The notes: generated from the sequence alone by a model not told the origin. Counted from the stretch's first letter, positions 807 to 29,216 are shown. The stretch: 36,073 nt of DNA from a virus (IMGVR_UViG_3300045988_182789:1-36073), one strand, 5' to 3'. Numbers and translations: made by a program.

Positions 807-872
807 CTTTTCTCCATCCTCGTACTCTAAGTCTTCCAACAATGCCGCAATAAAATAATAGAGAAAATCCAT
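765..872 (-). CDS. 35-aa ORF, truncated paralogue of the 35721-35927 protein, antisense to the 3' end of the XRE gene
   Basis: MDFLYYFIAALLEDLEYEDGEKLLEIIEKYLDNIK aligns with EFLYYFIAALLQEMPYEAGEKLLDTVENYLDTI (about 23/35 identical). Strong AAAGGAGGAAAA ribosome-binding site and its own promoter at 925-953. Confidence 0.35.
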   Translation of the reverse strand: MDFLYYFIAALLEDLEYEDGEKLLEIIEKYLDNIK

Positions 873-953: not shown

Positions 954-1186
954 CTGATAGAGTAAAATTTTTACATTTTTTTCTTGCAATTTTATCAAAA
1001 ATTTTATATTGAATCAAAAATTGAATACTTTATACGATTTTTAAAAATTTATTAAAAGTACCCTATCTAGCAATTATAAAAAATAATTTTATTTAAAAAG
1101 AAAAAACTCTCTTGGTAAGTCATCTATTTGTTTAGAAAAATTTAAAACAAAAATAACCCACTTCGGGGGTGTTAAGGATAAATTAA

Positions 1187-1981
1187 ATGTTTAGTGACAA
1201 GCGAAGATACAGACTTTATATAGACGAAAGCGGAAATTCTGATTTAGGACATTGCGACAATCCCAATCATCGTTATTTAAGTTTATGCGGTGTTATTATT
1301 GAATTAGACTATGTTCAAGATTTTCTTAATGAAGATATGAATATATTTAAAACAGCATTTTTAGGAAAACCTATTGATAAACCGATAGTATTACATAGAA
1401 GCGACATAATAAACCAACGGAATCAATTTCGTGTTTTAAAAAATGATAAAATACGTTATGCTTTCAATGATGAACTAAAAAGACTACTTTCAACTTGGGA
1501 TTTTTCAGTTTTAAGCGTTCTAATAGATAAAAAAGCTTTCATAGAAAAATACTTTAGTTGGCGTGAAAATCCATATCATTACTGTTTAATGGTAATGTTA
1601 GAAAGATATTGTCATTTTCTAAAATCTCATTACGGAGTAGGAGATGTTTTAATAGAATCTCGCACCAAAGAAGATGATAAATATTTATCAGATTATTATA
1701 GTCAACTATACAAACATGGAACAAACTTCATGGACGCCGATATTTTTCAAGAAGCACTAACATCAAAAGAAATTAAAATACGTAAAAAATATGAAAATAT
1801 TGCAGGTTTACAAATTGCTGATTTAATTGCACTACCTATCAGAAATAGAATTCTAGAAAAATACCGTTTTCTTTCTTTTGATAAAGAAAATTATGGAAAA
1901 TCAATTTTTGAAACTATAAAACCTAAAATTTATTCCGAATACAACAAAATTTGGGGATGGGGATTAAAATTCTTACCATGA
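1187..1981 (+). CDS. DUF3800-like protein (264 aa)
   Basis: N-terminal RYRLYIDESGNSD motif and a length typical of DUF3800. The gene and its 315-nt upstream spacer are visibly more AT-rich than the rest of the window. Confidence 0.55.
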   Translation: MFSDKRRYRLYIDESGNSDLGHCDNPNHRYLSLCGVIIELDYVQDFLNEDMNIFKTAFLGKPIDKPIVLHRSDIINQRNQFRVLKNDKIRYAFNDELKRLLSTWDFSVLSVLIDKKAFIEKYFSWRENPYHYCLMVMLERYCHFLKSHYGVGDVLIESRTKEDDKYLSDYYSQLYKHGTNFMDADIFQEALTSKEIKIRKKYENIAGLQIADLIALPIRNRILEKYRFLSFDKENYGKSIFETIKPKIYSEYNKIWGWGLKFLP

Positions 1982-2139: not shown

Positions 2140-3573
2140 ATGTCGATTATTAAAGCAGCTCTTTACGTCAGAGTTAGCACGATGGAACAGGTGACCGACG
2201 GATATTCCATAGGCGAGCAAAAGGATAAATTACTGCACTACGCAAGCGCGCAAGGGTATGCTGTCGTCGATACGTATTCCGACGAGGGCTTTTCCGGCAA
2301 AGATTTATTACGCCCGAATATGGAGCGAATGCTGAACGATATTCAGCACGGCAGGATAAATACCGTGCTGGTATATAAGCTTGACCGTCTTTCACGCCAT
2401 GTCAAGGACGTATTAGAACTTGTCGAAACCTTTGATAAATGTAACGTAACTCTTTATTCGCTTTCGGAAAACTTCGATCTAGCCTCTCCTTTCGGCCGCG
2501 CGGCATTAAAAATGATGGCTACTTTTGCCGAACTTGAGCGTGAAACTATTGTAGAGCGCATGGAAATGGGCAAAATCGCAAGGGCCAAAGAAGGCAAATA
2601 TACGTGTCCCGGGACGCGCTGCCCTTTCGGATACCGGCACGATAAGAAAAACGACCGTCTCCTCATTGAAGAATCCGAAGCCGAGATTATACGCAAGATA
2701 TTCGATTTATACGTTAATCACGGTTATACCTTCAGAAAGCTATACGATTATTGCCGCGAAGCCTATCCGGACGTTAAATATTTCAACAATCAAATGTGCT
2801 GCAAGCCTATAATCGAAAGGCCGCTGTACGCCGGCTATTTCCGTTACCGCGGCGGAGAACTCACAAAAGGGACTAATTTCGAAGCGATTATTTCTTACGA
2901 GCTTTTTCTCCAGGCGCAGGCGCAAGTTGACAGAAACCGTACTAAACGGCTTTCGGACAGCTCGCCCTATCTTTTAACCGGACTTCTGATTTGCGGAAGG
3001 TGCGGAAACCGATACGTCGGCAAAATGTATGAGCGTTACACTAAAAAGCCGGACGGTACGCACACCAAGCATTACCGTTACCGGGATTACGGTTGCGCGG
3101 CCAGACTTAAGCGCGATAAAAATTATCACCCGGCAAAATGCGACAATGATATTTACCGCGCCGAGGAGCTGGAAAAAATCGTCGAGGATTACGTACTCAA
3201 TCTGAATATTGACGATTACAACAAAGCCGACTTCTCCCCCGGCCTCATAGATAAAATGATGAGCGAAATAGGCGCGATAAAACGCTCGCAAAGCAAACTG
3301 CTTGACCTGTATCTTTCCGGCGATATCGACAAGGATACTTTTCTTATAAGAAAAATCGAATACGATTCTAAAATTGCGGAGCTGCAAAATCTGATAGAAA
3401 AAGAAACTGAATCCGTACAGTCCGCGCCGACTAACGCCGAAGCGATTAAAAAGTCTATTGCAGAATACAGTATGCTCAACCGGCGGCAAAAGCGCACGTT
3501 GCTAGAATATCTTATCAAAAATATCATAGTTGACGGCAGCAGAATCACAGTAAATTTACGGCTCAAAAAATAA
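2140..3573 (+). CDS. int: Large serine recombinase / phage integrase (477 aa)
   Basis: N-terminal resolvase domain (AALYVRVSTMEQ catalytic Ser context, VLVYKLDRLSR), Cys-rich zinc-ribbon region (CGRCGNRY...YGC) and a C-terminal coiled coil. Confidence 0.9.
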   Translation: MSIIKAALYVRVSTMEQVTDGYSIGEQKDKLLHYASAQGYAVVDTYSDEGFSGKDLLRPNMERMLNDIQHGRINTVLVYKLDRLSRHVKDVLELVETFDKCNVTLYSLSENFDLASPFGRAALKMMATFAELERETIVERMEMGKIARAKEGKYTCPGTRCPFGYRHDKKNDRLLIEESEAEIIRKIFDLYVNHGYTFRKLYDYCREAYPDVKYFNNQMCCKPIIERPLYAGYFRYRGGELTKGTNFEAIISYELFLQAQAQVDRNRTKRLSDSSPYLLTGLLICGRCGNRYVGKMYERYTKKPDGTHTKHYRYRDYGCAARLKRDKNYHPAKCDNDIYRAEELEKIVEDYVLNLNIDDYNKADFSPGLIDKMMSEIGAIKRSQSKLLDLYLSGDIDKDTFLIRKIEYDSKIAELQNLIEKETESVQSAPTNAEAIKKSIAEYSMLNRRQKRTLLEYLIKNIIVDGSRITVNLRLKK

Positions 3574-4059: not shown

Positions 4060-4455
4060 ATGAAACACTATCAAAAGGTTAAACCGACGGAAAGACTGAT
4101 TTTAAAAGCCCTTGTCGCTAAAGAAGATAATCCCGAAATAACCGAAGCATTCAGCAGGGCTCTGGACTTTTTCGACAGCTACGACAAGGTCGAACACACG
4201 GCGCACGCGGAGGTCATGCGAAAAATTTATCTGAATAATAACTGTTATAAATACTCCGACAGCACGCACGGACTGCCGAGAAAAACCGGCGTACCAAGCA
4301 GAACGCTCTGCCGATACAGAAAAAAATACCTGTCGTATCTTTACATGTTTTATTGCCGCCTGACCGGCAACGAATACACCGACAACATTACGAGCTTTTT
4401 TATACTGTTAAAACAAAAATTCAGTAAACAAAAACACGGAGGAAAAACACAATGA
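4060..4455 (+). CDS. Hypothetical protein with a possible C-terminal HTH (131 aa)
   Basis: The GVPSRTLCRYRKKYL segment resembles sigma-region-4/resolvase-type HTH. AAAGGAAG ribosome-binding site. Its stop overlaps the next gene's start (ATGA). Confidence 0.55.
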   Translation: MKHYQKVKPTERLILKALVAKEDNPEITEAFSRALDFFDSYDKVEHTAHAEVMRKIYLNNNCYKYSDSTHGLPRKTGVPSRTLCRYRKKYLSYLYMFYCRLTGNEYTDNITSFFILLKQKFSKQKHGGKTQ

Positions 4456-4691
4456 ACAACGAAACGGATATAATCAAACAAGAGCTGCGATATGCTATAA
4501 TAAACAAGCGCGCCGAGCTCGATATTCCGCAAACAAAAATGGCCGAGCTTTTGGGAATTTCGCCGAGATGCTACGTTGATATCGAGCACGGTATCAGCAT
4601 ACCGCGCACGCAAACTTTAATTAAATTCATGTGCCTGTTTAAGGACGACGCAATGAGGCTAATTGACAAAATTATTTTCAAAGTGAACTAA
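4452..4691 (+). CDS. Small XRE-type HTH protein (79 aa)
   Basis: IPQTKMAELLGISPRCYVDIEHG HTH pattern; translationally coupled to 4060-4455. Confidence 0.7.
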   Translation: MNNETDIIKQELRYAIINKRAELDIPQTKMAELLGISPRCYVDIEHGISIPRTQTLIKFMCLFKDDAMRLIDKIIFKVN

Positions 4692-4712
4692 AAAGAATAT
4701 TAAAAATAAAAG

Positions 4713-4745
4713 CCTACGGAATTACTCCGTAGGTCTTTTTATTTT
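4713..4745. terminator. Bidirectional rho-independent terminator between convergent genes
   Basis: CCTACGGA (4713-4720), loop ATTAC, TCCGTAGG (4726-4733), then TCTTTTTATTTT. An A-run upstream serves the opposite strand. Confidence 0.8.
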
Positions 4746-7700
4746 ACGCTACAAAACTTAACAAATTCTCACGAATTGAATTATCTAAAGCCGCTTCGTT
4801 AAAATAACCGGCAACCTTGTTTTTCCCGATATCTCCCAATTTATAACCGGCAAGGAGCATTAAAAGATATTTATGCAACGACGACAACGGCAATCCGTCA
4901 ACATACGTTTCTACTTTTTTCTTACGGCTGCCGTTAATAGTATTTCCGTTGCTGTCCGTATCGGCTGTAAGCGAAGATATGTGCGCTAAATATATAAAAA
5001 TCCTATCGTCGTTAATCATATTACATATCGTTTGCTTCCTGTCCAGCTCTGCCCCGAACGCTTTATTCATTGCCAACGCATAATAGTAATCATACATTTT
5101 TACTGCCGCTTTTTCCTTTTCGTCATCTGTAAGCTGTCTATATGCGAAACCCTGCGTTAGTTTAGCAACGCGTTTGTCGTAATCGATTGAATTCAATATC
5201 TCATCCAAAACATCAAGGCCTTTTACCGCCGATTTTTGCGTCTGACTTATTAAAACCGAAACAGCTTCGCTTTGCGCGGATTTATCCTGCTGAGATAAGT
5301 CCGAATTTTCTATTTCCCTACGCTTAGCGTACATATCGCTGACTTCGCCGGCAATATCGTTTAAATATCTGTACTTAAAAGCCGCGTTTCTGTCGCCGTC
5401 GTTTTTGGCATAAGTAATCTCGTCAAGTTTGTCGTAAAACTCGCCGGAATACCTGTTAGACACAGCCGTATTGACGGTAAAATTACTCGCAATCAAGCCC
5501 CTTTCTCTTTTAGCGGTTGTCATAGGTAAAACGATGTCTCCGATAACGCCCGAATACTGATCGATAATATAATGAATCTTCTTGGGCGAATAATTTAAAG
5601 CCTTTCCCAAAGCTTTAGCTATTTCGCTTGTGCTTTCGTCATAACGATTTTCCGGCGATAAATTCTGTAGTCCCCGGCCTTCGATAACTCCGCCGTACCA
5701 AGTAGTATTTGTCGCGGCGTCCGTCAAAGGAGAAAATATTGTCCTTGTAAAATTATCAACCGGTGAAACCGCGCTTGCAGCCGATTCCAGGTATCCGTCC
5801 CAAGCGTTAGCGTTTCCTTTTGCGCTTTCCTTTCCTCTGAGATACAGAGAACCAAATACGGATAAAACCCTGCCCTTAGGCAGTTTAAGAAATTGCCCGT
5901 CGCCGATATTGAATAAATAATAATTTTCCTTATCGCGTAAAGAAACCGCTTTATAATCCTCATCGTCGCCGTTTAACAGATCGTTAAGCGCCGTAAGTCC
6001 TATACCTAAAAGCAGGCTTCTGACAATAAGCTGAATCCATTGAGAAACGTTCTTTTTGCCGAATACAGTGCGCACAAGCTTGCTCCAGCCCTGAATCGAT
6101 GGATTAAGAAACGGCATAACGGTCCTGTTAAGCATTTTAGCCGTTTTACCGCCGCGTCCGAAATTGGTGGTCACGTCGGCACTGTCCAACAGCGACTGCT
6201 CGACGCTAAGGCCTTTTTGCCGCGACAGCATATACTCCGCAAGCCTCGGAGCCTGCTCGATAAACATATTGGCATATTCCAGCTTATTAAGCGCACGCTC
6301 AGCCAAACTCTTTAAACCGGTCCCGCCGCGCTTTATGCCCGTATTATAATCAAACAAACCGCTGGACAAGCCCCCGGCAGCAAGATATTCGTTCCACATT
6401 TCCCCTTTAGTCGCAATCTGCTTATAAGCCTTAGCCAAAGACGGCAGAAACCTGCGGATACCGTGCTTTGTATAAAATAACGAGTCCTGAAGATCTCGAA
6501 AAAAGTTGCGAACCAAAAAAAACGGATTAGCCGACGTAACAAGTTTTTTGAACATCGTATTGCCTTTAGCCACAACCTCGATCAACTTATCGCGGTAAAC
6601 GGTATTGGGCGCAAAATCCTCAAAGCCTGCAAAAACTTCCGGCGTAACGTCAAGCGTAATTCTATTTCCGTCCTTATAAAACGAAATCTGATTATTCATA
6701 TCCCGCATAGTTGAATAATCAACGTCAAGCGTGTTATAAAGCTCGGCTTTAACGGGCGCGGTCAAGCGCAGTTTTTCAGTAACTTTATTTACGCGCTCAA
6801 CACCGGCCACGCGCATATCGGAATAATTCTGTCTGCTCTCAAGCGCGTCGTAAAGACTGTTTTTTAATTGATTGATTCGTCCGGCTCTTACTACCTCCAT
6901 TGTCTGACGCGCCATAATAACGTCTATGGGCATAATGTCCAGAGTAGAACCCTTTGCCGTCTTAAGCGTACTTTTTACCGCAAGATTGTATTTTCCGCTT
7001 AATCCGCCGATACCGGAGCTACCGCCTTCACGGAAAGTAGGCACGTAATGCGGATACAGTTTACGGCAGGCCGCCGCAGCTTCTGCGGTAATCAATCCCG
7101 TATCAACCCTGTACTGCAGCAGATTATCGTTGTATTTCCACACCTTAGCGGCAAGCGTCTTAAATTCCGGATATTTGATCTCTCTTTGAACGGCAAGCTG
7201 CAAAGCCTCGGCCGCGGTTAAATCTCCCAAAACCGTTTTATCAACTTTGATTCTATCCGCATGATGCTTAAGCAGCAAATAGGTATAAAATTCTTTAACG
7301 TATTCCTCACCCTTCTTATACACCGGCGAAAATATTTTTTTAAGTCCGTCGCCGACGCGTTTACCGGAAATATCCGCTTGATTTTCGTCCAGCATACTGT
7401 TAGCAGCGTTATATGCGGCGCGGACATAATTAGTCTTTGCGTCTATATCCTCAATGCCCAATTTTTTTCCGGCTTTGACAATACCCGTCTGCGCGTCCGA
7501 AAAATTTATCTGAAAATTTGTCCAAGTGTCCTTTGCCATTTCGCCATAAGACAGTTTATCGATCTTAACCTTTGTCAGGACCTCGCTGTATTTCCCCGGT
7601 TTTTGGGTTACAGACATTCCGTTGCCATAAGTTGTTATTTCGTTTTTTAACGAATTTCTTTCATCTCCGCCTTTTTCACGTAAACTGTTGACTTTTTCAG

Positions 7701-10700
7701 TTGGCTTCTCAAGCGAATAAATCAGATCTGCAGTCTCTCCAGCGCTTCCAGTACCTCTTTCTCCGTTTTGGACTTGCGAATCAGTTCCGCCACCCGCTCG
7801 GCTTCCTTCTCGTTGTTCGCGGCGTTGAAAAGTTTCTGCATTGTAGATTTCGAGTATCCCGTCCCAGTAACTATCGCTAATAATTCCTTTGCTTTCATAA
7901 ATCTTACTCCTAACTAAATCTATATCTGTCTCATTATCCAGTTTGATGCGTATAATTCGCGTAATTTTGGGGTTTTGATATGTTCCTTTGGCAAACACCA
8001 GCACATTGTTTATACCGAAGCGGTCGCTATGCATGTCGTTCACCGGAATTATGTACTCTCCGGCCGCTGTCTTATTCCGTCGGATTTCCGCAGTCAGGTT
8101 GTTCAGTTTGCTATTAAAGTCGCTGTACTCTCGATTGCTCAATACGTCGTTCGCCCTAACCCAGCCGTAATCATTATATTGCTTTTCAGTATAACTGTCT
8201 ATCTTTTTTAACGAGAATCGGTTATCTAAATTATTTTTATCGAAACTATTGACTTTTGCTTCACTCATGCGTATAATAATATCAGAGTCGTAGGTTGTAA
8301 GGGCTTGCGGGAATTGGACCCGTATTGTATCGTACAATTTACGGCTTTTTTCTTTATTCCAATATAACAGATTTTCTTGATTTATGTGTTTCAATATAAA
8401 TGAAGCAAAGCCATCTTTCCCGTAAAAACTAGTAACAAAATTACTCTTAATATCTATACCTAAATACATTCCGCTTCCGTCAGCCCTAACTGCCACCACT
8501 ACAGGACGTCCTTTGTCGTCAAGCATATCCGTTACCACGACAATACTCCGCGAGTCCGTCAAACTGTCAATGAGCATTACAGGATTCTGCAAGCGAATAG
8601 GCAACTGCTTTATTTTTTCTCGGCTTATTCCATGATAATTACCCTTACCAACCGTTTCTTCAGGTGTATTTATATCTCTTAAATGTTTTTGAGTTATCAG
8701 CATCGGCAAATCATCAAAACCAGCTTTTATTATCCACTCCGGCGTATGCTCACTTACCAAAACAGAATCGCCTTTAGGTAATTTTCTATCCAGCGCGCCG
8801 TCCACCTGCTCGGCAAACGGTTTCAATGAATAGCGCAATTCAGAATTTTTTTCAATATTTTTTGATTTTTCTGTTGACTTTTCAGTTTTTTCGCGTATAC
8901 TAATATTAGAGTCGGTAATTCTTAATGGAGCGGGCAATTGCAGCCCGTGGCGTGTTAAGAGTTCGCCGACTTTTTCTTTATTCGAATTTACGTATAATAT
9001 CCCGTCGTTGTCCGCGGCATATTCAAGCAAGCCTTTTACATTACGACCGTATGCGCTGGCCACAAAGTTGGTCTTTACCGTTACCGGCTTGTCTAAGTCT
9101 ATATCCAGATACACGCCGTCCTGATTTACCCATACGGGAACTATGAGTTCGCCCTTATCCGTCACGATCTCCGTAATAGCCACGACACTCTCATTGGGAT
9201 TGGTTTTGGATTTCAGTATAAACAGCGGATTCTGTATGGCCTCCGGAATCTGCTTGATGAGTTCCACGCTCATCTCCATATGCTTTTCCAGAATCTCCTT
9301 TACTTTGGAATTACGCATAAGCATAGGAGTTTTAGGAAACCCGAGCTTAACAAACACATCCGGCGTTTCTGATACATATAAGTCCAAGTTTGCAGAGCGC
9401 TTTCCCGCAAGCACGTCGTCCACCTGCTCGGCAAACGGTTTCAATGAATAACGCAATTCAGAATTTTTTTCAATATTTTTTGATTTTTCTGTTGACTTTT
9501 CAGTTTTTTCGCGTATACTAGTAGTAGATGGCGTCGCGCGTTCAAAGGGGTTCGCTCCTTCTGCGGCGTCTATCTTTTTGCCATTTTGTTCAGTTACAGT
9601 AAATTTTGTAGGTTTAAAATCAACCACGTCGTACAATATCATATTGCTGCCCGTAAAGCCGACTATCACATTTGCCGCGTACTGATTACCAGCGATATCC
9701 AACAGAACGTTGCCACGCGCAAATTCCTTAATATTGTCGTTTCGAGTGTGCTTTAACCCTTCGTTTACGTAACTATCCGAAGCAAGCACAATCTCATCTA
9801 AATGCCCGCTTGATTTCATTTTATCAATAAATATAGTATTTTTTGTAATATTTCCTTTCAGATATTGCGCATTTTTTGAATTTATATATTCATTTCTTGT
9901 TATTGCATTTACTTTTATCAACCTCCCACCTGCTATCGGGATTCCGTTGCTAAATTTTTTCATAGTGTCATATACGGTTTTCAATCTGTCTTTTTTAGAC
10001 ACTCCATCTAAAATATTATCCTTAATTAAGACAGCTTTTCTACCTGCGTTGATGTTAACAATACTATATCTTGCTTCTTCCCCCACCTCATTTGACTTGG
10101 TTTCAGAATTTTTTTCAATATTTTTTGATTTTTCTATTGACTTTTCAGCTCTTTCGCGTATACTAGTATTAGAGACAGTTTTTATCCTCGGTAGCGTTTC
10201 GGACGTTCTGTTCAGGGTTTCGGCATTGGGCGACTGAGAAGTAGACTGCTTTTCATTAGACCTTTCGTTAAAAATTGCCAACGATTCATGCAGTTGGTGA
10301 TTAACTTGCGGAAGGTCTTTTTTTATGTACTCGACGCGCTCGGCGCGCTTCTGCAAAAGGTTGCGCACATAATTGTCTTTTGCAGAGAAAGCCGATACAA
10401 CAAGATTGTACTTGCTGTACTTGGAATTGATGTCTTTGACGGTATTTAGCTCAATGGAGATTATGCCGCTGCTGCCCTTGTCGGTTTTCATTTCCGCAAG
10501 GATATTCAGCCGTCCGTTATCCATACGCACAATAGCGTCAGGATCGGAGATGAGCTGCGGCAACTGCGTCGTAATTTCCGCACCGAGATCATGATAATTC
10601 CCGTCAAGCGCACCGTCGGCGCGAGAGGCGAGATAAAGCGCGTCAAAGCGTATAATCACCTCCAAATCTTGCGCACCCTCCACGTTGTTGAGAATAACGT

Positions 10701-12825
10701 CGGGAGTGTGTTTCATTATAGAAATATACGAGTCCGCCGCCTTTGCAGCACGGGCGTCTGCGTCACTCATTGAGAGAATATCCTTCACGTTATTCTCAAA
10801 AGAACGATTGTTCATAAGAGAGAAGCGAATAGTCTCCGCCTGTCCCCTATTCGCCGCCTGTGCCTGTGCTTCCGCAGAGGCGTTTTCTGTTTCCAAATAC
10901 CGCTGATTGCGCGACGTTTCCTTTGCTTTAAAAGCGTTATCCATTGCAGTAATGCTTACGCCTCCGGTAGGATTATCCAAAGCTTTGGCAAGCTGTCTTT
11001 CCGCTTTTTTATAAAAGGCAATATTACTCCTGTCCCCGCCTTTAGAGACGAGGATTTTTATTTTATCCCTTACCCAGTCCAAAATCCGCTGTACGATATT
11101 CCTGTCGCGGTTTATAAGCCGCCGCAAAACAGCCTCGTCGGTGAGCATTTCCTTTGCGGCAAAATCCGCCACTATTTCCGTCTGCACTATGTACTGCAGG
11201 GTTTCAGGCGCAACGCCGTCATGCGCCGCCGAATAGTTTTGAATATATCTATCAATGTTATATTTATTTTTCAGAGCTTCGCTGGAATTGATTTCCTTTA
11301 ACACCGTATTGGCAAAACGCTCGTATTGCCTGCTACCCTCCAGGGTATGCACAAGCTCGTGCGAAGCGACATAGGAGCGCACGTCTCCGGCATCGGCTTT
11401 ACCCGACAAATAAGTTATACCGCTTTCACGGTCGTAAAAACCGTTAACGCCGTCGCTTAAACCGTCCGTGATAACATACTGTCCGTTGCCGTCGGATAAC
11501 AGCGTAACGTCCTTAACCGCTTGCGCTATATCCGGACGGATAGCGTTGGCGGTAGGCTTGTATTTTAGTTTATCTTTATCGATATTAGCGATATTTTCGC
11601 TGTATGCCTGAGCGTTGTATCCTTGCGACACGATACTGTTTTCAGATGCCGACTTTATACCGCCGTCGGCATTGAAATAATTTTCAAGTCCGTTGCGGGA
11701 AATAAATTCGCTTCTTTGCGCCGAATCCATTTTACGCAGATTGTCGGATAGCTTTTCACGCAAAGCGGTATTATCCAGAACCTTTCCGCCCTTTACGGCG
11801 GCCTGTGCGTTTTGTCCTTCGACGCGCTTAAATTCCGAAGCGTTTTCAATAGCGTTGAGATTATTAAAACCTTTTGCCTGTATAGCTCTGCCCGCTCTGT
11901 CCGCGCTGCCCAATACCGATCCGACCGTTCCGCCGACTAAAAAAGTATGCGGAAGCTGCTCGGGCAGATCGCCGTACTGCCGCTTTACCTCCTCCCAGCT
12001 GTTGACGCCCGTTATTCCTCTTAACGCCGGATCGATTATATCGCTGGCGACTTCCTCCAAGCCCTCGCCGACAAAGTTAGCGGCCAATTTTCCCGCCGTG
12101 CTTTTTGCGATTTGTTTTCCAAACATTTTGCCGGTGGCTTTGCCTAAAAGCTTGCCCGTGCCGCCGCTAATCTTTTCTACCAAACCTTCCACAAGTCCGC
12201 TTCCCGTGCCGTACAGCCATTCATTGCCGCTCAGTCCCTCATTCTGTTTAGCTGCGTCCGACACGCTCTGTCCCGCCGCGCTCGTCATAAACATACCGGT
12301 AGACAGCGCAGGGCCGATACCGGGTATTGCCGCTGCGCCTATACTCGGCAGCATACCGCCTACGCCGCTTGCCACGTCGCCCACAAACTGCATTACGCCG
12401 TCAGGATTATACCATTCATTAGCATGATCGTAGTTAATCCAATCGTTGCGCATCTGCTCGTCCGCCCACTCATCCTGCCCGAACAATTCGGCTACGCCGC
12501 CTACAACATAATCGCTGATTCCTTCCAAAGAACGCACCAAACCTAAGCCCAACTGCTCAATAGCATATCCCAAGCCGCCCCAGAAACCGCCTTTATTGGT
12601 TTCCTCCTCTGTCTTTTCGGCAACATTCTGCGTAATATTCTGATTTACGTCGTAAGCAGGCGTATAAGACTCAAATTCCGGCGTATTTTGAATGTAATTG
12701 CTTTCCGCGTTAATTTCCTCGTCGCGCGTCTTTAAACTCTTATCTCGGGCATATTTACGCTCCGCAAGTTTACGGTGATAATTTTCGACAGGATTCGACT
12801 TGTTTTTATTGAGATTATATATCAT
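4744..12825 (-). CDS. Giant polyvalent virion/ejection-type polyprotein (2,693 aa) with an embedded zincin-like metallopeptidase
   Basis: Single uninterrupted ORF. Gly-rich hydrophobic N-terminal region (aa ~78-310). HELVH motif at aa 489-493 (nt 11347-11361). Three paralogous ~180-aa modules (aa ~667-840, 1125-1300, 1331-1510) plus other modules joined by K/E-rich linkers. ~1,000-aa C-terminal region with hydrophobic segments. Confidence 0.8.
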   Translation of the reverse strand: MIYNLNKNKSNPVENYHRKLAERKYARDKSLKTRDEEINAESNYIQNTPEFESYTPAYDVNQNITQNVAEKTEEETNKGGFWGGLGYAIEQLGLGLVRSLEGISDYVVGGVAELFGQDEWADEQMRNDWINYDHANEWYNPDGVMQFVGDVASGVGGMLPSIGAAAIPGIGPALSTGMFMTSAAGQSVSDAAKQNEGLSGNEWLYGTGSGLVEGLVEKISGGTGKLLGKATGKMFGKQIAKSTAGKLAANFVGEGLEEVASDIIDPALRGITGVNSWEEVKRQYGDLPEQLPHTFLVGGTVGSVLGSADRAGRAIQAKGFNNLNAIENASEFKRVEGQNAQAAVKGGKVLDNTALREKLSDNLRKMDSAQRSEFISRNGLENYFNADGGIKSASENSIVSQGYNAQAYSENIANIDKDKLKYKPTANAIRPDIAQAVKDVTLLSDGNGQYVITDGLSDGVNGFYDRESGITYLSGKADAGDVRSYVASHELVHTLEGSRQYERFANTVLKEINSSEALKNKYNIDRYIQNYSAAHDGVAPETLQYIVQTEIVADFAAKEMLTDEAVLRRLINRDRNIVQRILDWVRDKIKILVSKGGDRSNIAFYKKAERQLAKALDNPTGGVSITAMDNAFKAKETSRNQRYLETENASAEAQAQAANRGQAETIRFSLMNNRSFENNVKDILSMSDADARAAKAADSYISIMKHTPDVILNNVEGAQDLEVIIRFDALYLASRADGALDGNYHDLGAEITTQLPQLISDPDAIVRMDNGRLNILAEMKTDKGSSGIISIELNTVKDINSKYSKYNLVVSAFSAKDNYVRNLLQKRAERVEYIKKDLPQVNHQLHESLAIFNERSNEKQSTSQSPNAETLNRTSETLPRIKTVSNTSIRERAEKSIEKSKNIEKNSETKSNEVGEEARYSIVNINAGRKAVLIKDNILDGVSKKDRLKTVYDTMKKFSNGIPIAGGRLIKVNAITRNEYINSKNAQYLKGNITKNTIFIDKMKSSGHLDEIVLASDSYVNEGLKHTRNDNIKEFARGNVLLDIAGNQYAANVIVGFTGSNMILYDVVDFKPTKFTVTEQNGKKIDAAEGANPFERATPSTTSIREKTEKSTEKSKNIEKNSELRYSLKPFAEQVDDVLAGKRSANLDLYVSETPDVFVKLGFPKTPMLMRNSKVKEILEKHMEMSVELIKQIPEAIQNPLFILKSKTNPNESVVAITEIVTDKGELIVPVWVNQDGVYLDIDLDKPVTVKTNFVASAYGRNVKGLLEYAADNDGILYVNSNKEKVGELLTRHGLQLPAPLRITDSNISIREKTEKSTEKSKNIEKNSELRYSLKPFAEQVDGALDRKLPKGDSVLVSEHTPEWIIKAGFDDLPMLITQKHLRDINTPEETVGKGNYHGISREKIKQLPIRLQNPVMLIDSLTDSRSIVVVTDMLDDKGRPVVVAVRADGSGMYLGIDIKSNFVTSFYGKDGFASFILKHINQENLLYWNKEKSRKLYDTIRVQFPQALTTYDSDIIIRMSEAKVNSFDKNNLDNRFSLKKIDSYTEKQYNDYGWVRANDVLSNREYSDFNSKLNNLTAEIRRNKTAAGEYIIPVNDMHSDRFGINNVLVFAKGTYQNPKITRIIRIKLDNETDIDLVRSKIYESKGIISDSYWDGILEIYNAETFQRREQREGSRAGGGTDSQVQNGERGTGSAGETADLIYSLEKPTEKVNSLREKGGDERNSLKNEITTYGNGMSVTQKPGKYSEVLTKVKIDKLSYGEMAKDTWTNFQINFSDAQTGIVKAGKKLGIEDIDAKTNYVRAAYNAANSMLDENQADISGKRVGDGLKKIFSPVYKKGEEYVKEFYTYLLLKHHADRIKVDKTVLGDLTAAEALQLAVQREIKYPEFKTLAAKVWKYNDNLLQYRVDTGLITAEAAAACRKLYPHYVPTFREGGSSGIGGLSGKYNLAVKSTLKTAKGSTLDIMPIDVIMARQTMEVVRAGRINQLKNSLYDALESRQNYSDMRVAGVERVNKVTEKLRLTAPVKAELYNTLDVDYSTMRDMNNQISFYKDGNRITLDVTPEVFAGFEDFAPNTVYRDKLIEVVAKGNTMFKKLVTSANPFFLVRNFFRDLQDSLFYTKHGIRRFLPSLAKAYKQIATKGEMWNEYLAAGGLSSGLFDYNTGIKRGGTGLKSLAERALNKLEYANMFIEQAPRLAEYMLSRQKGLSVEQSLLDSADVTTNFGRGGKTAKMLNRTVMPFLNPSIQGWSKLVRTVFGKKNVSQWIQLIVRSLLLGIGLTALNDLLNGDDEDYKAVSLRDKENYYLFNIGDGQFLKLPKGRVLSVFGSLYLRGKESAKGNANAWDGYLESAASAVSPVDNFTRTIFSPLTDAATNTTWYGGVIEGRGLQNLSPENRYDESTSEIAKALGKALNYSPKKIHYIIDQYSGVIGDIVLPMTTAKRERGLIASNFTVNTAVSNRYSGEFYDKLDEITYAKNDGDRNAAFKYRYLNDIAGEVSDMYAKRREIENSDLSQQDKSAQSEAVSVLISQTQKSAVKGLDVLDEILNSIDYDKRVAKLTQGFAYRQLTDDEKEKAAVKMYDYYYALAMNKAFGAELDRKQTICNMINDDRIFIYLAHISSLTADTDSNGNTINGSRKKKVETYVDGLPLSSLHKYLLMLLAGYKLGDIGKNKVAGYFNEAALDNSIRENLLSFVA
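8799..8902. repeat. Intragenic linker repeat, copy 1 (104 bp)
   Basis: 103/104 identical to 9417-9520. On the minus strand it encodes SIREKTEKSTEKSKNIEKNSELRYSLKPFAEQVD. Confidence 0.95.
9417..9520. repeat. Intragenic linker repeat, copy 2 (104 bp)
   Basis: Direct repeat of 8799-8902, 618 bp away, in frame. Confidence 0.95.
10102..10165. repeat. Intragenic linker repeat, copy 3 (partial, 64 bp, ~4 mismatches)
   Basis: Matches the TTCAGAATTTTTTTCAATATTTTTTGATTTTTCT...CGCGTATACTA core. Encodes SIRERAEKSIEKSKNIEKNSE. Confidence 0.85.
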
Positions 12826-12841
12826 TATATTATCCTCACAA

Positions 12842-12903: not shown

Positions 12904-13665
12904 ATGGAAAAGAAAATGAGATTTATTAACTTTTTATTTCTTGTTATGCTAATTGCTCTGTGCGGTTTACTTGGCGCTTGTTCAGATACGCCGCCCGATA
13001 CACCAGATGATATCACCCAGAATGATACAGCAGATATCAATACCGATAATTTCAACGCGCAGCAAGAACAAACTTTAATTGAAATAGACACAAGATTAAA
13101 CGACGTAAAATTACTTATTTCAACAAACGGAATGACAATGCCGACCTCAACGCTCAAAAATCTTAATTCTGCTAAAGAAAATGCTCATTTATTGATTTAC
13201 GATAAAGCTAAGACAAAAGATGATTTAACTAATATATTACAATGGGCAAGTTTATCGTTTTTACAAGAATATTATAATTGCGCTTTAAAACATTACGCAA
13301 TTTTATACAACAATCTTATACAACTAAAAGATGATTTTGAAGCAGAGCGACAAGCTATTGATAATAAAATTAGCGAGAACTATAGCAATTACATTATTGA
13401 ACAACGTTATTTAGCCGAAGAATTGGCTAGACAGGGATTAGATATAAATTCCGGGTACGGCGCTCAAAGAAAAAAAGAATTATATCAAAGTTATCAAAAG
13501 AAAAACAGCGAATTAGTAAAACAGAGCAATAAACTTGAAAGTAATTATCAAAACTATCTTAAAGACGTAAAAGCAACCGACGATCAAATTACTAAAACTG
13601 AAGAAAAACTTAAACAATGCAAACGCGACTTAGCAAAATATCAGGAAATCATAGATAAAATGTAA
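12904..13665 (+). CDS. Phage-encoded lipoprotein (253 aa), opposite-strand moron
   Basis: Signal peptide MEKKMRFINFLFLVMLIALCGLLGAC with lipobox LGAC. AT-rich. Own promoter. The real start is taken at ATG 12904, not the track start 12775. Confidence 0.8.
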   Translation: MEKKMRFINFLFLVMLIALCGLLGACSDTPPDTPDDITQNDTADINTDNFNAQQEQTLIEIDTRLNDVKLLISTNGMTMPTSTLKNLNSAKENAHLLIYDKAKTKDDLTNILQWASLSFLQEYYNCALKHYAILYNNLIQLKDDFEAERQAIDNKISENYSNYIIEQRYLAEELARQGLDINSGYGAQRKKELYQSYQKKNSELVKQSNKLESNYQNYLKDVKATDDQITKTEEKLKQCKRDLAKYQEIIDKM

Positions 13666-13671
13666 TTTATA

Positions 13672-13704
13672 GCGATAAAAAGCATTGCCGCTTAATGCCG
13701 GCAA
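13672..13704 (-). terminator. Minus-strand terminator after the 477-aa gene
   Basis: Stem TTGCCG (13685-13690) / CGGCAA (13699-13704), extendable with one mismatch. On the minus strand it is followed by GCTTTTTATCGC. Confidence 0.45.
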
Positions 13705-13710
13705 CGAAAA

Positions 13711-15144
13711 TTAAACTTTCGCCTCGTGCCAGCCGCCACGCGCATAAACATATAGTTTGCCGTTTTTTCGTTTCCACGCAAATCCACCCACGTTTTTAGT
13801 TTCACCTTCCGAGAGAGAATTAAATATTTGTTGGGTATAACTCGGATTGCCATTATCGTTATCAACGCTTTGCTCGCTCCAGTTTTTATCCACGTTATCG
13901 GAATCAATGGTCGCTTTATTTGTCGTTTTATAAAACCGTCCGTTGTAATAAACGTAATTATCGGCTTTTCCGGCGCCGTAATTCATGTTTATGACGGTGC
14001 CGTTATCTATTGCTCCTTCCTTTGCCTTTCCTATAATTTTATTGATATACTGGTCTTGTTGAGTCCCCTTTCCGGTTCCGTTGTATTTACCGAAGCTTTC
14101 TGCACCGGCTGTATCCAGAACAATACCCGCATAAGGATCAACTATACCGTATTTATTCTGAGTAGCGAAATCAGGAGCAGGATCCTTATACTCGTCGTTT
14201 TCAAAATTCAAACCGACTATTTTGGCAAGCTTTTCTTTCTGCTCTGCGTCAAGATATTGGTTTTCATTTATATTCTGCGCAATTTCTTTAAGCGAGTAAG
14301 TCTTATCCCCTGACAAATAATTTGTAATCATGTTGCCTATTTCGTTATAAGCAGCCGCTCTTTTTTCTTCTATTTCCTGAATATCAAGCTCGCTGTTAGC
14401 GTTTCTACGAGCGGATTCGGTCTCAAGAAGCTGGGACTGCGTATCGTTAAGCAACTCGCGCATATGTGAATTATATTCTCTCTGCGCATCCGCACGACTA
14501 TTTGCATACTGAGTATTAATATCCGACGCCGCCGACGTAGTAAGTCCGATATTAGTGTCCCAACCACTGCGCGCAAGCTGTTCCGTCAGATATTTCTTGG
14601 ATAATTCGGTAGAAACATAGGCATCCCTGAGCTGCTCGTACATATTATCACGCGCCTGCTCCTGCGAAGTCATGTAATTTTTATTAAGAATTTCATAAAC
14701 GTCAAAAGCGTCCCTGTCATTCTGGTACTTCTGCAACTCATATCCCTCCAGCCCGGAAGCGTCGTAATCGACCAAGCTACCGCCGTATTTATCGTTTAAG
14801 GGAGATAAATAATTTTCAAACAGCTCCGAATTATTATTTGTGCCGTTATTTGCAGACGACGTCGCGGAACCGCTGTTTCCTTTTGCAGAAATATCTTTAA
14901 CCGCCGCGGCAGAATTATTGTTTTGAGTATTATCAGAATCGATAACGGAGTCAGCCGCAGTATTAACATTTTTGTTTTTAACGGTACCGTTACCCAACCA
15001 ATCATTCATTGTGTACGGCTTATTGGCAACATTATTTGCCGCAATACCCTTGTCGCCGGAACCTGCCAATCCTAAAGCCTGCTGAGACACGCTTTTCAGT
15101 TCGTCAGCATCGGTTTTAACCTTTGTCATTCTGTTTGACGTCAT
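13711..15144 (-). CDS. Virion-associated protein of unknown function (477 aa), N/S/T-rich N-terminal part plus coiled coil
   Basis: GGAGGAG ribosome-binding site 7 nt before ATG 15144. Positioned after the fibre and membrane genes. No catalytic motif recognised. Confidence 0.6.
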   Translation of the reverse strand: MTSNRMTKVKTDADELKSVSQQALGLAGSGDKGIAANNVANKPYTMNDWLGNGTVKNKNVNTAADSVIDSDNTQNNNSAAAVKDISAKGNSGSATSSANNGTNNNSELFENYLSPLNDKYGGSLVDYDASGLEGYELQKYQNDRDAFDVYEILNKNYMTSQEQARDNMYEQLRDAYVSTELSKKYLTEQLARSGWDTNIGLTTSAASDINTQYANSRADAQREYNSHMRELLNDTQSQLLETESARRNANSELDIQEIEEKRAAAYNEIGNMITNYLSGDKTYSLKEIAQNINENQYLDAEQKEKLAKIVGLNFENDEYKDPAPDFATQNKYGIVDPYAGIVLDTAGAESFGKYNGTGKGTQQDQYINKIIGKAKEGAIDNGTVINMNYGAGKADNYVYYNGRFYKTTNKATIDSDNVDKNWSEQSVDNDNGNPSYTQQIFNSLSEGETKNVGGFAWKRKNGKLYVYARGGWHEAKV

Positions 15145-16015
15145 TGTAACACTCCTCCGATATAAAATTTATAATGTTGTGTTCTTTTGTTACGTCGGCT
15201 TTGAATTTATCAAGCTCATTAATCTGACGTATTGTTCTCGCACGCAGTTCATCAGTAACAAAAAAATATGTATTAACGCAATTCATGGCGCCCATAAGCA
15301 AAAATAAAGCAACCTGCAACAGTGTCCAAACGAATTCCGCCCATGAAAAATTAGCAATAAGATTAACCCCGTAACAACCGGCTAAAACAGACGTTGCCAT
15401 TTTACTTATTAAACCTGTACGGGCATTAGACTTACGATATTCCTTTCTGCCCTTTCCCATATTATAAGGATCGTCATCCATACCATCTCCGCTTGTCAGC
15501 GACGAAACAGTCAAAGGCGTTATGCGTTTTCTTAAAGCCTTACGGTAACAAATATAGCGCTTAAGCTCTTTCTTACGCTTTTCCTTATTTTTAAAATCAA
15601 ATGCAACCTCTCGGGAATTTCCTTGTTCATCGAAATAATCCTCGTATTTCATACCCTCCCTGGACAAAATCTTTCGGCGGGATTTTTTCAAAGCCTCGAT
15701 ATTTTTCTTATCGCACCATTCGTCCAACAAATTTATATAATCGCAAATGCTGTCCACGGTTTCTCCGTGTAGTTTATTTGTAGCCACTACTTTTTCATTT
15801 TGGTCGCCTTTTAAAAAACCTTGTTCCCCGAACATTTGAGTTATAAACAGCGAAAATAAAAGAGCTAGCGCTCCGTCTCCTATAATCTCGAACGGAGTTT
15901 TTCCAGTTTCGTTAATTGCAATCAATCCCCTTGCTATGTATGCCAAACATGCAATCGCAATTATTATCGGGATTATATTATTTCTGAAAAAATCCTTAAC
16001 TTTATTTTCGTCCAT
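15116..16015 (-). CDS. Integral membrane protein (299 aa; two N-terminal and two C-terminal hydrophobic helices, basic central loop)
   Basis: Hydrophobic segments IIPIIIAIACLAYIARGLI, ALALLFSLFITQMF, VLAGCYGVNLIANF and VWTLLQVALFLLMGAM. Confidence 0.65.
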   Translation of the reverse strand: MDENKVKDFFRNNIIPIIIAIACLAYIARGLIAINETGKTPFEIIGDGALALLFSLFITQMFGEQGFLKGDQNEKVVATNKLHGETVDSICDYINLLDEWCDKKNIEALKKSRRKILSREGMKYEDYFDEQGNSREVAFDFKNKEKRKKELKRYICYRKALRKRITPLTVSSLTSGDGMDDDPYNMGKGRKEYRKSNARTGLISKMATSVLAGCYGVNLIANFSWAEFVWTLLQVALFLLMGAMNCVNTYFFVTDELRARTIRQINELDKFKADVTKEHNIINFISEECYNDVKQNDKG

Positions 16016-16017
16016 AA

Positions 16018-16449
16018 CTATACTCTCCCGGTATATTTTGACATAACGCTTTCCATGCTTTTTGCGGTAGCGTCAGCTGTAATGCCGGCGTCAATTTCTT
16101 TCACGGTTCGAGCTATGACATTTTTAAATGCAATCACATTTACACCTTGTCCGATAAGAACGCATAAAAGGATATCGTTTAACTGAAGTAAAATGGGCTG
16201 CAGCAACGTCAGTATCACATACATAGACGCCACTACGGTAACTCCATTTCCGAGTACTTTACCTAACTTACCCGCCATTTGCAACCCGACAACCATACAG
16301 ACAAGAACGCCTCCTATAGTCAGCGACCAGCCAGCTTGAGAAGTTGTTACAATATTCCTCCAATTTATGCCGACATACACTCCCATAGGCGCTAATTGCG
16401 ACAAAAAAGATCCGGTGCGCAAAATCGCAAGTTTAATCGTTTTGTTCAT
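16018..16449 (-). CDS. Multi-pass membrane protein (143 aa), holin or ejection-channel candidate
   Basis: Start moved to MNKTIKL (ATG 16449), which has GGAGGTG 7 nt upstream. Three to four hydrophobic helices. Confidence 0.6.
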   Translation of the reverse strand: MNKTIKLAILRTGSFLSQLAPMGVYVGINWRNIVTTSQAGWSLTIGGVLVCMVVGLQMAGKLGKVLGNGVTVVASMYVILTLLQPILLQLNDILLCVLIGQGVNVIAFKNVIARTVKEIDAGITADATAKSMESVMSKYTGRV

Positions 16450-16882
16450 CGTTAAGCACCTCCGCAATTTTTGCCGCCGTACCGTTTTTTACAGCCGCGT
16501 TATCTTGCCCCACAAGTAAAACAGCCGCGTCGCTTGCTTTTGATTTTATTTTTATAAGCCGATCTATGGCAATGCGCAGCTCTTCGTTCTCAGCTTTAAT
16601 AGACATGAAATCCGCCTTAAACTCTTCAAAAATCTTGTTCGTCTTGCTGTAAATATCTGCGACTTTAATATCTTTATCCGTAAGCGTCCCTATAGCCGAC
16701 TTTAATTTAGAAAATATAAAAGTCAATCCCGCGAATACGCTTATTATGCTTGTAACCAAAGGCAATACGACGCTGTTAATATCTTGTCCCAAAAAGCTTT
16801 CAAGCTCATTTTTAAATATTACGCAGCACACCGAGGCTCCGACCAAAAATACTACCGATAAAATTTTAATTGCCGTTTTCAT
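16433..16882 (-). CDS. Membrane protein with two TM helices and a coiled-coil tail (149 aa), holin-like candidate
   Basis: ILSVVFLVGASVCCVIF and LPLVTSIISVFAGLTFIF helices, then an amphipathic C-terminus. Confidence 0.55.
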   Translation of the reverse strand: MKTAIKILSVVFLVGASVCCVIFKNELESFLGQDINSVVLPLVTSIISVFAGLTFIFSKLKSAIGTLTDKDIKVADIYSKTNKIFEEFKADFMSIKAENEELRIAIDRLIKIKSKASDAAVLLVGQDNAAVKNGTAAKIAEVLNDEQND

Positions 16883-29206: not shown

Positions 29207-29216
29207 AGTATCCCCC

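Follow-up and report, generated by a model that had tools for sequence, protein, structure and literature searches.

Phage polyvalent proteins, as described by Iyer et al. 2017 (PMC5512222), combine from two to fifteen domains, of effector type or LPD and unrelated to one another, in a single chain, and the Pfam families MuF_C and LPD38 were defined in that work. The general model given there is that such proteins are packaged and processed by a metallopeptidase, yet N4 vRNAP, ArdC and TraC1 contain peptidase domains of this kind and are transferred uncleaved. The gp47 protein of phage phi24B (vb_24B_48, 2,807 aa) was abundant in virion proteomics and invisible in cryo-EM, and was proposed to be an ejection protein that includes a peptidoglycan-directed peptidase (bioRxiv 10.64898/2026.04.10.717836). 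The gp25 protein of Escherichia phage PTXU04 (PTXU04_00025) is needed for infection and is the sole member for which this was shown (PMC11879866). In prophages phi1 and phi4 of Clostridium clostridioforme LM41, an ORF of ~8 kb with similarity to LPD3 lies at the 3' end and takes up ~20% of the genome (PMC11318856). PBECR domains are described in the literature searched solely as predicted RNases.

The window analyzed here, the whole 36,073-nt stretch of viral DNA, comes from a prophage of a gut bacterium and encodes a terminase, portal, major head protein, fibre, serine integrase and repressor. The host belongs to the Christensenellales and is known from a MAG alone. On the minus strand, a single ORF of 2,693 aa starts with ATG, contains no internal stop and occupies 8,082 of the 36,073 nt (22.4%), in agreement with the preliminary description of an uninterrupted ORF making up 22% of the genome. 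That description had also raised the concern that re-sequencing might split the ORF by a frameshift. Public collections hold the identical protein from independent assemblies, in several contigs of different sources (4 contigs for P0001 and 3 for P0002, one of them 318 kb), the protein in the 318-kb MAG contig being near-identical; a frameshift artefact of sequencing is thus unlikely.

The giant gene follows the morphogenesis genes on the late-gene strand and adjoins lysogeny genes (HTH, integrase and repressor), with a terminator-like hairpin and a lipoprotein gene on the opposite strand between it and the late operon. The closest isolated relatives of the portal were Bacillus Pagevirus podophages (E 2e-71), as was the case for the virion protein, and searches of Pfam and PHROGs revealed no tape-measure, tail-tube, sheath or chaperone family anywhere in the window, so that the initial reading of a podovirus-like genome lacking a tape measure holds. 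The encoded protein consists of three parts, an N frame (aa 1-640), a cargo region (aa 640-1700) and a C frame (aa 1702-2693), the features of which are listed in Table 1.

Table 1. Features of the giant gene and its flanks, in window coordinates.
Feature	Position (nt)	Strand	Details
Whole ORF, polyvalent protein, 2,693 aa	4744..12825	-	Stop codon 4744-4746; ATG start; identical protein in public collections
GAGGA ribosome-binding site	12833..12837	-	Sequence reading; ATG 7 nt downstream
Gly-rich conserved helical domain, N frame, aa 78-320	11866..12594	-	Gly content, invariant columns, helical model
Zincin-like HExxH domain, N frame, aa 405-625	10951..11613	-	HELVH = 11347-11361; E550 = 11176-11178
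Module K, MuF_C/PBECR copy 1, aa 667-885, RFSL start	10171..10827	-	Pfam PF18819 E 1e-10, 41.9 bits
Linker DNA repeat copy 3	10102..10179	-	Encodes ..SIRERAEKSIEKSKNIEKNSE..; at recombination breakpoint vs sister phage L003
Module A, divergent LPD3-like, aa 919-1090, RYSI start, GC 0.35	9556..10071	-	BLASTP to module O
Linker DNA repeat copy 2	9401..9534	-	92-93% identical to copy 1
Module C, MuF_C/PBECR copy 2, aa 1125-1300, RYSL start	8926..9453	-	PF18819 E 2e-16, 60.3 bits; weak PBECR3
Linker DNA repeat copy 1	8783..8916	-	Flanks the 1,155 nt inserted in L003
Module F, MuF_C/PBECR copy 3, aa 1331-1535, RYSL start	8221..8835	-	PF18819 E 6e-22, 78.0 bits
Module G, aa 1536-1701, RFSL start	7723..8220	-	Copies in sister proteins; low-confidence model
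C frame, aa 1702-2693, conserved all-alpha	4747..7722	-	pLDDT 80-95; LPD38; fold matches
Hydrophobic helix, aa 2266-2284	5974-6030	-	KD 1.66
Pfam LPD38, aa 2288-2439	5509-5964	-	E 5e-34, 118.6 bits vs cut-off 27
Bidirectional intrinsic-terminator-like hairpin	4712..4734	.	Directly 3' of ORF stop codon

The N frame begins with a domain that had been called Gly-rich and hydrophobic. The first term was appropriate, with Gly making up 16-18% of aa 101-300, but the region is weakly hydrophobic, its best 19-aa Kyte-Doolittle window (aa 162-180) reaching 1.3. Many G/E/P columns of this domain are invariant among 60 homologues, it was modelled as helical with a pLDDT of 60-80, and its family comprises 878 representative clusters, in which it is nearly always N-terminal in proteins of 2,000-3,600 aa.

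The HELVH motif was verified at aa 489-493, and residues H489, E490, H493 and E550 are invariant among the 60 homologues. The AlphaFold model of this region (pLDDT 80-90) shows the topology of a zincin core, namely a helix (431-443), three strands (449-453, 462-465 and 470-474), the HExxH helix (479-495) and a Glu helix (540-560), and thus the succession of a three-stranded sheet, the HExxH helix and, further on, a Glu helix by which the zincin-like MPTases of polyvalent proteins are defined. The best PDB fold matches found by Foldseek were metalloproteases of the PprI/IrrE/ImmA type (probability 0.95-0.98, E 0.03-0.2), but no Pfam peptidase model, PF18818 included, matched the region at E<=5, and a profile search of PDB sequences with it returned no match. 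The proposed zincin-type peptidase is therefore partly supported, and the region is assigned as zincin-like from its motif and its structure model.

Five cargo units, in the order K-A-C-F-G, lie between the frames: three MuF_C/PBECR predicted RNases, one LPD3-like module and one without a family, each with a Lys/Glu-rich linker followed by an R[YF]S[LI] start. The three paralogous modules recognized earlier have their quoted cores at aa 745, 1183 and 1398, each inside a Pfam MuF_C match, and the resemblance to the MuF C-terminal type proposed earlier was borne out by three PF18819 matches above the gathering cut-off of 27.6 bits. In the alignment of these copies, the catalytic-type positions read NYH-D, EKH-M and NYH-G, with K.N.V.S in all three; module K keeps His745 and the K.N.V.S strand, module C the catalytic-type His and Ser, and module F His1398 and Ser. 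Judged from this alignment, none of the three modules has lost the His and Ser positions that an active PBECR RNase should have, and all are predicted RNases. Module F is homologous to the MuF_C domain of phi24B gp47 (E 2e-8), and in sister phages a PBECR3 module is carried in place of module K.

Both of the further modules placed earlier at aa ~918-1080 and ~1536-1670 are real, the first being module A and the second module G. Module A had no direct Pfam match; it is related to the LPD3-like modules of sister proteins through module O of P0009 (BLASTP 1e-23), which itself matches PF18798 LPD3 at E 2e-5. Pfam and profile searches gave no significant family for module G, which is optional among sister phages and has 52% identical copies in P0025, P0027 and P0028.

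The suggestion that homologous phages be compared for swapped modules was answered by a protein BLAST map and by DNA alignments, which both revealed cargo exchanged between conserved frames. The sister phages L002 and L003 have DNA 99.2-99.4% identical to that of the present phage over 12 kb upstream, up to aa 640-656, and 98.7-99.2% identical for 5.5-6.8 kb downstream, starting from aa ~1710 (L002) or ~1305 (L003), and the cargo is the only difference in the compared DNA. The cassette exchange points are the frame edges and the in-frame linker DNA repeats, three of which occur inside the gene (78-128 nt, 92-93% identity) at spacings of 618 and 645 nt, both multiples of 3. Nine architectures were found among close relatives with frames at least 87% identical, two of them confirmed in DNA at 99% flank identity; they include B-A-C-D-H-F-G, B-A-D-F-G and O alone, amongst others, with PBECR3 and LPD3 named by Pfam among those modules, and the ORFs of the sister phages range from 1,827 to 3,479 aa. 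The protein is a conserved chassis carrying swappable cargo. At the module boundaries, the motif R[YF]S[LIV] was observed 279 times in 109 divergent homologues against 16 expected, is confined to the middle 20-70% of their sequences, and stands at the start of the C frame in 14 of 27 homologues. In models of LPD3-like modules, R[YF]S[LI] forms the first beta-strand of the domain, so the motif may be structural and not a cleavage site.

The C frame, of ~990 aa, was confidently modelled and is nearly all helical. A C-terminal region of ~1,000 aa with hydrophobic helices had been proposed; the conserved helical region is there, but the plural is somewhat overstated because there is one strongly hydrophobic helix, followed by LPD38. 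Foldseek against BFVD matched this fold to the C-terminal portions of 82 polyvalent proteins from viruses (E<=0.001; TM 0.5-0.6 over ~900 columns), tblastn with the C frame found matches in 360 phage records, and a PHROG annotated 'DarB-like antirestriction' matches it weakly (E 3e-4). No solved structural relative was found in the PDB, where the best Foldseek hits were unrelated membrane proteins (E 0.3) and no sequence matched. With LPD38 near the C terminus inside a conserved fold of ~900 aa, the C frame has the makeup of LPD38-type giant podovirus proteins, and it is a conserved core common to the giant proteins of many podoviruses.

The designation as a polyvalent protein was right. The protein combines three MuF_C modules, LPD38, an LPD3-like module, the HExxH domain and one further module, it is phage-encoded in a virion-gene context, and its orthologues are mosaic, with relatives carrying PBECR3, LPD3, ART-PolyVal, M23 and other cargo. 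By these sequence features it is a well-supported member of the LPD38 class of phage polyvalent proteins, a class already known.

Several described proteins share parts of this organization. Like the present protein, phi24B gp47 is the giant product of the last gene of a temperate podovirus and contains a MuF_C module; its LPD38 region, also C-terminal, is directly homologous to that of the present protein (E 3e-18; 2e-8 to 6e-8 for the MuF_C copies); it differs in its LPD5 and LPD1 cargo and in having no detectable N-frame homologue, and phi24B has a Gram-negative host and a T=9 capsid. PTXU04 gp25 (2,198 aa, LPD38) is a C-frame homologue (tblastn E 9e-14; Foldseek E 1.4e-24, TM 0.54, ~900 columns), but PTXU04 is a virulent coliphage and gp25 has no annotated cargo beyond LPD38. 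Palmer gp20 of a Bacillus Pagevirus (1,678 aa; E 3e-14) is also homologous to the C frame and is encoded by the last virion-block gene before the holin and lysis genes; it is shorter, is annotated as hypothetical and had no MuF_C detected in the match. The 'DarB-like' Bcep22 gp75 and JC1 gp69 likewise take up ~22% of a podovirus genome and have LPD3 cargo and LPD38 at the extreme C terminus (aa 4195-4401 in JC1 gp69) (PMC9144972), whereas their methylase, helicase and lytic transglycosylase are all absent here. A P1 DarB-like antirestriction protein was ruled out by Pfam, which found no methyltransferase or helicase domain in the ORF; such domains are present in the distant relatives P0113-P0115. 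A MuF-anchored polymorphic toxin was ruled out as well, there being no N-terminal Phage_Mu_F domain in the ORF according to Pfam. Mosaics of the Helicobacter prophage jhp1044 type resemble the present system in that orthologues have duplicated and reshuffled PBECR, LPD3 and other domains, giving many combinations, but have a DdrB-ParB chassis, and the accessible text of Iyer et al. 2017 does not describe linker repeats or a boundary motif for them. The LM41 ORFs are likened by their published description, as gut Clostridia prophages like the present one (PMC11318856).

The earlier suggestion of an ejection protein with a role like that of T7 gp16 is supported by the C-frame homologues phi24B gp47, PTXU04 gp25, Palmer gp20 and HTVC204P gp40, of which the first is virion-borne and the last is informative by gene position. 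The gene for gp40 of Pelagibacter phage HTVC204P (1,253 aa) has the internal-virion-protein genes on one side and the tail fibre gene on the other, a position that we take to be the gp16 slot of the T7 gene order. T7 gp16 and P22 gp7, gp16 and gp20 are comparable to the present protein by analogy of role, as large proteins housed inside short-tailed phages; they differ in that the present protein has no transglycosylase domain and no sequence or fold similarity to any solved structure. Membership in the T7 gp16-like or P22 ejection families was rejected (no PDB sequence match; best Foldseek E against the PDB 0.3), and as no solved ejection protein showed a detectably similar fold, this is an analogy and not membership.

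Other explanations were weighed against these observations. It is unlikely that the protein has a purely structural role in ejection or as a conduit. In that case the frames would cross wall and membrane, the zincin would target peptidoglycan or host proteins, and the middle modules would not be released as effectors but would remain in the intact protein, working as part of it or as spacers. Such a protein would be compatible with the C frame being the only part common across podoviruses, with near cargo-free homologues (P0009, 1,827 aa; BFVD targets, 955-1,430 aa; HTVC204P gp40), with the M23 or lytic transglycosylase domains of relatives, with the peptidase proposed by the phi24B authors and with the uncleaved packaging of N4 vRNAP given in Iyer et al. 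2017. However, the positions expected of active PBECR RNases are apparently kept in 3/3 MuF_C copies, the boundary motif is conserved between unrelated modules, the fast turnover of cassettes between 99% identical phages resembles an arms race and not spacer drift, and the zincin fold matches are cytoplasmic regulatory proteases, not wall hydrolases. That the prophage end expresses an accessory moron which is absent from the virion and serves as a toxin or in defence, much like the polymorphic or MuF-linked toxins of temperate phages, appears quite improbable: homologous C frames occur in virulent podophages within the virion gene block, phi24B gp47 is virion-borne and PTXU04 gp25 is needed for lytic infection, and the present gene lies directly after the late genes on the same strand, with no Phage_Mu_F head domain, secretion signal or downstream candidate immunity gene. 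What would favor it are the neighboring HTH, integrase and repressor genes, the hairpin and lipoprotein moron that separate the gene from the late genes, its own ribosome-binding site and terminator, and the toxin-type BECR domains inside the protein.

The HMM searches proposed as a check for an ordinary tape-measure or tail-fibre protein gave no such match for the ORF. A structural protein of this type from a long-tailed phage is highly improbable despite the large size, the position at the end of the morphogenesis block and a best BFVD target labelled 'Siphoviridae sp.' (a metagenomic label), given the absence of tail families throughout the window, the lack of fibre or collagen-type repeats in the ORF, the Pagevirus-like portal and virion protein, and the effector-type domain content. 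That the long ORF is an assembly chimera seems scarcely credible, even if repeats like those in the linkers can mislead assemblers, for the identical protein comes from several contigs and sources, with a near-identical one in the 318-kb MAG contig, the reading frame is intact across all junctions and the sister architectures are each internally consistent.

As a whole, an LPD38-class chassis with cargo that is packaged and ejected is the best explanation, and we regard it as probable. By analogy with its homologues, the giant protein most likely travels in the virus head and enters the cell together with the DNA: it would be made late, packed inside the capsid and expelled via the short tail at infection, with the C frame serving a packaging or ejection function. 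The Gly-rich region and the hydrophobic helix may then act at the cell membrane, and the putative zincin domain may cleave the protein where a linker meets D-[IV]-R-[YF]-S-[LIV], either before or after delivery. The predicted RNases and other modules freed in this way would target RNA of the host or of its defences during the initial minutes of infection.

The large protein is a string of interchangeable modules held between two conserved frames, and it differs from its counterparts in sister phages by the exchange of whole cassettes. BLAST of the ORF against homologues delimited conserved frames at aa 1-640 and aa ~1700-2693 around a variable middle, the cargo. At the DNA level, the sister phages L002 and L003 match the window at 99.2-99.4% identity upstream, over 12 kb that end at aa 640-656, and at 98.7-99.2% downstream, over 5.5-6.8 kb that begin at aa ~1710 (L002) or ~1305 (L003); the difference lies only in the cargo. 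Such phages, 99% identical in DNA and with the cargo string as their only major difference, constitute a natural experiment, and the chassis is thus cleanly separable from the payload.

To catalogue the modules, proteins were cut at the junction motif, the linkers were trimmed and the resulting pieces were clustered, which yielded a small module alphabet. The order is K-A-C-F-G in the window, and among homologous proteins it is B-A-C-D-H-F-G (P0003), B-A-D-F-G (P0005), B-A-C-D-H (P0006), B-A-E (P0008) and P-E (P0010); the series extends from a single module, O, in the 1,827-aa protein P0009 to eight units in the 3,479-aa protein P0004. Modules B and P belong to PBECR3 (E 1e-15), and D, E, H and O are LPD3-like. 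Cargo is exchanged at the edges of the frames and at three linker DNA repeats, whose spacings of 618 and 645 nt are both multiples of three, so that unequal crossing-over between them would preserve the reading frame. The GC content of the modules, which ranges from 0.35 to 0.47, fits a mosaic origin.

Features of the large protein, its gene and the surrounding window (nt unless marked aa)
Feature	Position	Strand	Remark
Large gene	4744-12825	-	uninterrupted; 2,693 aa; 22.4% of the 36,073-nt window
MuF_C copy 1 (PF18819)	aa ~742-826		Pfam E 1e-10
MuF_C copy 2 (PF18819)	aa ~1175-1283		Pfam E 2e-16
MuF_C copy 3 (PF18819)	aa ~1394-1495		Pfam E 6e-22
LPD38 (PF18857)	aa 2288-2439		Pfam E 5e-34
Linker DNA repeats (three, 78-128 nt)	8783-8916, 9401-9534, 10102-10179		92-93% identical
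Ribosome-binding site GAGGA	12833-12837	-	7 nt 5' of the ATG of the large gene
Terminator-like hairpin, bidirectional	4712-4734		directly past the stop codon of the large gene; followed by a convergent HTH gene (4452-4691)
Terminator-like hairpin	13683-13706		just past the 477-aa late gene
Repressor-like HTH	417-806
DUF3800 gene	1187-1981	+	GC 0.27
Serine integrase	2140-3573
Lipoprotein gene	12904-13665	+	253 aa; within a GC 0.34 island
Block of three genes	13711-16467	-	477, 299 and 149 aa
Large terminase, portal, major head protein	22.9-28.3 kb
Large-terminase ORF	26941-28657	-	TTG start
Sigma-70 region 4 gene	28784-29233	-	149 aa

The identical 2,693-aa protein is recorded from several contigs and sources, and a near-identical one, named by NCBI, is encoded on a contig of 318 kb. 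Given these records, a single faulty assembly or a frameshift artefact does not account for the ORF, and the element is a prophage of a gut Clostridia lineage. The motif positions quoted for the protein in the preliminary description were all correct. The large gene is the last on the late strand, separated from the preceding 477-aa gene by a hairpin and an opposite-strand lipoprotein gene, and owing to the two hairpins it may form its own transcription unit.

Within the cargo, all three MuF_C copies retain the His and the K.N.V.S strand. MuF-C was defined by Iyer et al. as a PBECR domain, a predicted RNase of the BECR fold (PMC5512222). Module A (aa 919-1090) had no direct Pfam match, and it aligned with the LPD3-like modules of sister proteins, including that of P0009 (42% identity, E 1e-23), which itself matches LPD3 at E 2e-5. 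No family could be assigned to module G (aa 1536-1701) by searches that included Pfam. AlphaFold modelled aa 660-1100 and aa 1530-1700 with pLDDT values under 50-60, and for this reason no fold was inferred for modules K, A and G. Sub-threshold matches were left unused, amongst them LPD14 (aa 247-315, E 0.02) and EcoR124_C on module G (E 0.01). For the ORF as a whole, an NCBIfam search returned no family and phmmer against PDB sequences nothing meaningful.

In the N frame, H489, E490, H493 and E550 were invariant across 60 homologues at 27-50% identity. Foldseek of the HExxH region against the PDB placed PprI/IrrE and a related Mycobacterium regulator on top, both ImmA/IrrE-type metalloproteases, at a probability of 0.95-0.98 but with E values no better than 0.03-0.2. 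The AlphaFold model of aa 320-620 (pLDDT 80-90) runs from a helix through three strands to the HExxH helix, with E550 on a further helix downstream, and the agreement of this order with the description of Iyer et al. suggests a zincin core. No Pfam peptidase model matched the HELVH region, a profile of it found nothing meaningful among PDB sequences, and it is probably a zincin of an uncurated clade. Searched alone, the N frame was found in 878 representative clusters, and among the matches listed it lay almost always at residues ~30-100 of proteins of 2,000-3,600 aa. Many homologues have the N frame in common and a different C-terminal region. Additionally, P0025, P0027, P0028, P0038 and other giant proteins carry the N frame at ~50% identity without the LPD38 C frame, sharing at the far C terminus only aa ~2560-2690 of the large protein, which implies that the same N module is carried on alternative C-terminal chassis.

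The C frame was modelled as almost entirely helical over aa ~1760-2693 (pLDDT 80-95); LPD38 is preceded by an acidic patch, and this in turn by a single hydrophobic helix (aa 2266-2284). In 82 predicted structures of viral proteins the C-terminal part matched it at TM 0.5-0.6 over ~900 columns, including those of PTXU04, Ralstonia phage Alix and proteins with RelA/SpoT, methylase or lytic transglycosylase domains elsewhere in the chain. By tblastn it was found in 360 phage records, amongst them Stx phages and phages of the Vibrio, Pagevirus, Pelagibacter, Ralstonia and Burkholderia groups.

The position and behavior of several homologues inform the function of this frame. The 1,253-aa homologue of Pelagibacter phage HTVC204P follows tail tubular protein B and an internal virion protein and precedes the tail fibre, which is the gp16 slot of the T7 gene order. 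The C-frame homologue Palmer gp20 closes the virion block, with the holin directly after it. Phage phi24B gp47 (LPD5, LPD1, LPD38, MuF-C) shows direct homology both to the C frame (E 3e-18) and to the MuF_C modules of the large protein; it was abundant in virion proteomics and missing from the cryo-EM model, and its authors proposed an encapsidated ejection protein (bioRxiv 10.64898/2026.04.10.717836). PTXU04_00025 is needed for efficient infection (PMC11879866), the "DarB-like" protein of Bcep22-like phages occupies 22% of the genome and has LPD38 at its end (PMC9144972), and prophages of C. clostridioforme end in a comparable ORF of 8 kb (PMC11318856). Casjens and colleagues had already listed putative ejection proteins of very large size in short-tailed phages.

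The window is a temperate phage that also encodes a tail fibre with a collagen motif and a virion protein of 839 aa. Among isolated phages, the Bacillus megaterium Pagevirus podophages come closest to it in the portal (E 2e-71) and likewise in the 839-aa protein. Families of tape-measure, tube or sheath proteins were looked for in the window and not found; together these sequence comparisons make a podovirus-like phage well supported, though short of proof. The rest of the genome had no megablast match among isolated phages, and nothing in the window could be assigned to an endolysin or holin family. The large-terminase ORF aligns solely with the later portion of terminase profiles (from profile position ~150-260) and its start is overlapped by a 133-aa ORF (phrog_2412, unknown function), so the gene could be split or unusually organised. 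A candidate regulator of the late genes is encoded just upstream of the terminase genes; this protein contains sigma-70 region 4 and weakly resembles antiterminator Q. Just upstream of the large gene lie genes for an Asn/Ser-rich protein of 477 aa without a family, for a membrane protein of 299 aa with a weak DUF6773 match, and for a 149-aa protein that spans the membrane several times. The lipoprotein, whose signal peptide ends in the lipobox LLGAC and whose remainder is rich in coiled coils, has no Pfam family; its gene, in a low-GC island between the large gene and the 477-aa gene, is kept in both sister phages and looks like a moron, possibly with a role in superinfection exclusion. The very AT-rich DUF3800 gene adjoins the serine integrase, and since the 99%-identical sister L003 has an Abi_2 (PF07751) gene (L003 21796-22734) in its place, this site is a second hot spot of cargo exchange.

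Several other readings of the large protein were considered. Tape-measure, tail-fibre, MuF-toxin and DarB identities were each rejected on domain tests, the first also because no such family was found in the window. Homology to T7 gp15/gp16 or P22 E proteins was rejected as well, since the C-part model had no Foldseek relative in the PDB (best E 0.3). The best-supported reading, in line with the preliminary description, is that of a polyvalent protein that would be packaged in the virion and ejected, both of which we infer from the homologues. Under this reading packaging or ejection would depend on the C frame, whose function is conserved and probably essential; the N frame would contribute a zincin and a Gly-rich domain that may act on membranes, and the interchangeable middle would carry early-acting effectors, here mainly three predicted RNases. 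We hypothesize, further, that the protein processes itself at the junctions and that the cargo has RNA targets.

All cargo units start with R[YF]S[LI] preceded by a Lys/Glu-rich linker, and the C frame of the large protein starts with the variant IYSL. Across 109 divergent homologues, R[YF]S[LIVM] was observed 279 times versus 16 expected from composition. D-[IV] often stands before it, and it occurs only in the central 20-70% of the chains; in 14 of 27 divergent homologues the C frame opens with the motif. The motif may mark the structural start of a module, may signal cleavage, or may do both, the first being possible because in LPD3-like modules it is modelled as the first beta-strand, following a low-confidence linker. 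The literature consulted on such proteins yielded no description of this motif, although an earlier one is possible. Together, the repeat spacing in multiples of three and the 17-fold enriched boundary motif provide testable rules for the junctions. A bolder proposal, which we consider unlikely on balance, is that the N-frame zincin recognises and cuts the junction, a Lys/Glu-rich linker with D-[IV]-R-[YF]-S-[LIV] after it; the family would then be a self-processing polyprotein in which in-frame recombination at linker repeats reshuffles the set of effectors, and any module between two junctions would automatically be packaged, delivered and released.

In many podoviruses a giant LPD38 protein occupies a fifth of the genome, and one such protein is needed for efficient infection. 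The unannotated N-terminal Gly-rich and HExxH module is now defined in ~880 representative clusters, and possibly new are only the natural series of cargo variants and the candidate junction signal. If the junction is not cleaved, the large protein would be a well-documented example of an already described class; if it is a cleavage site, the chassis would be usable to deliver chosen proteins into bacteria.
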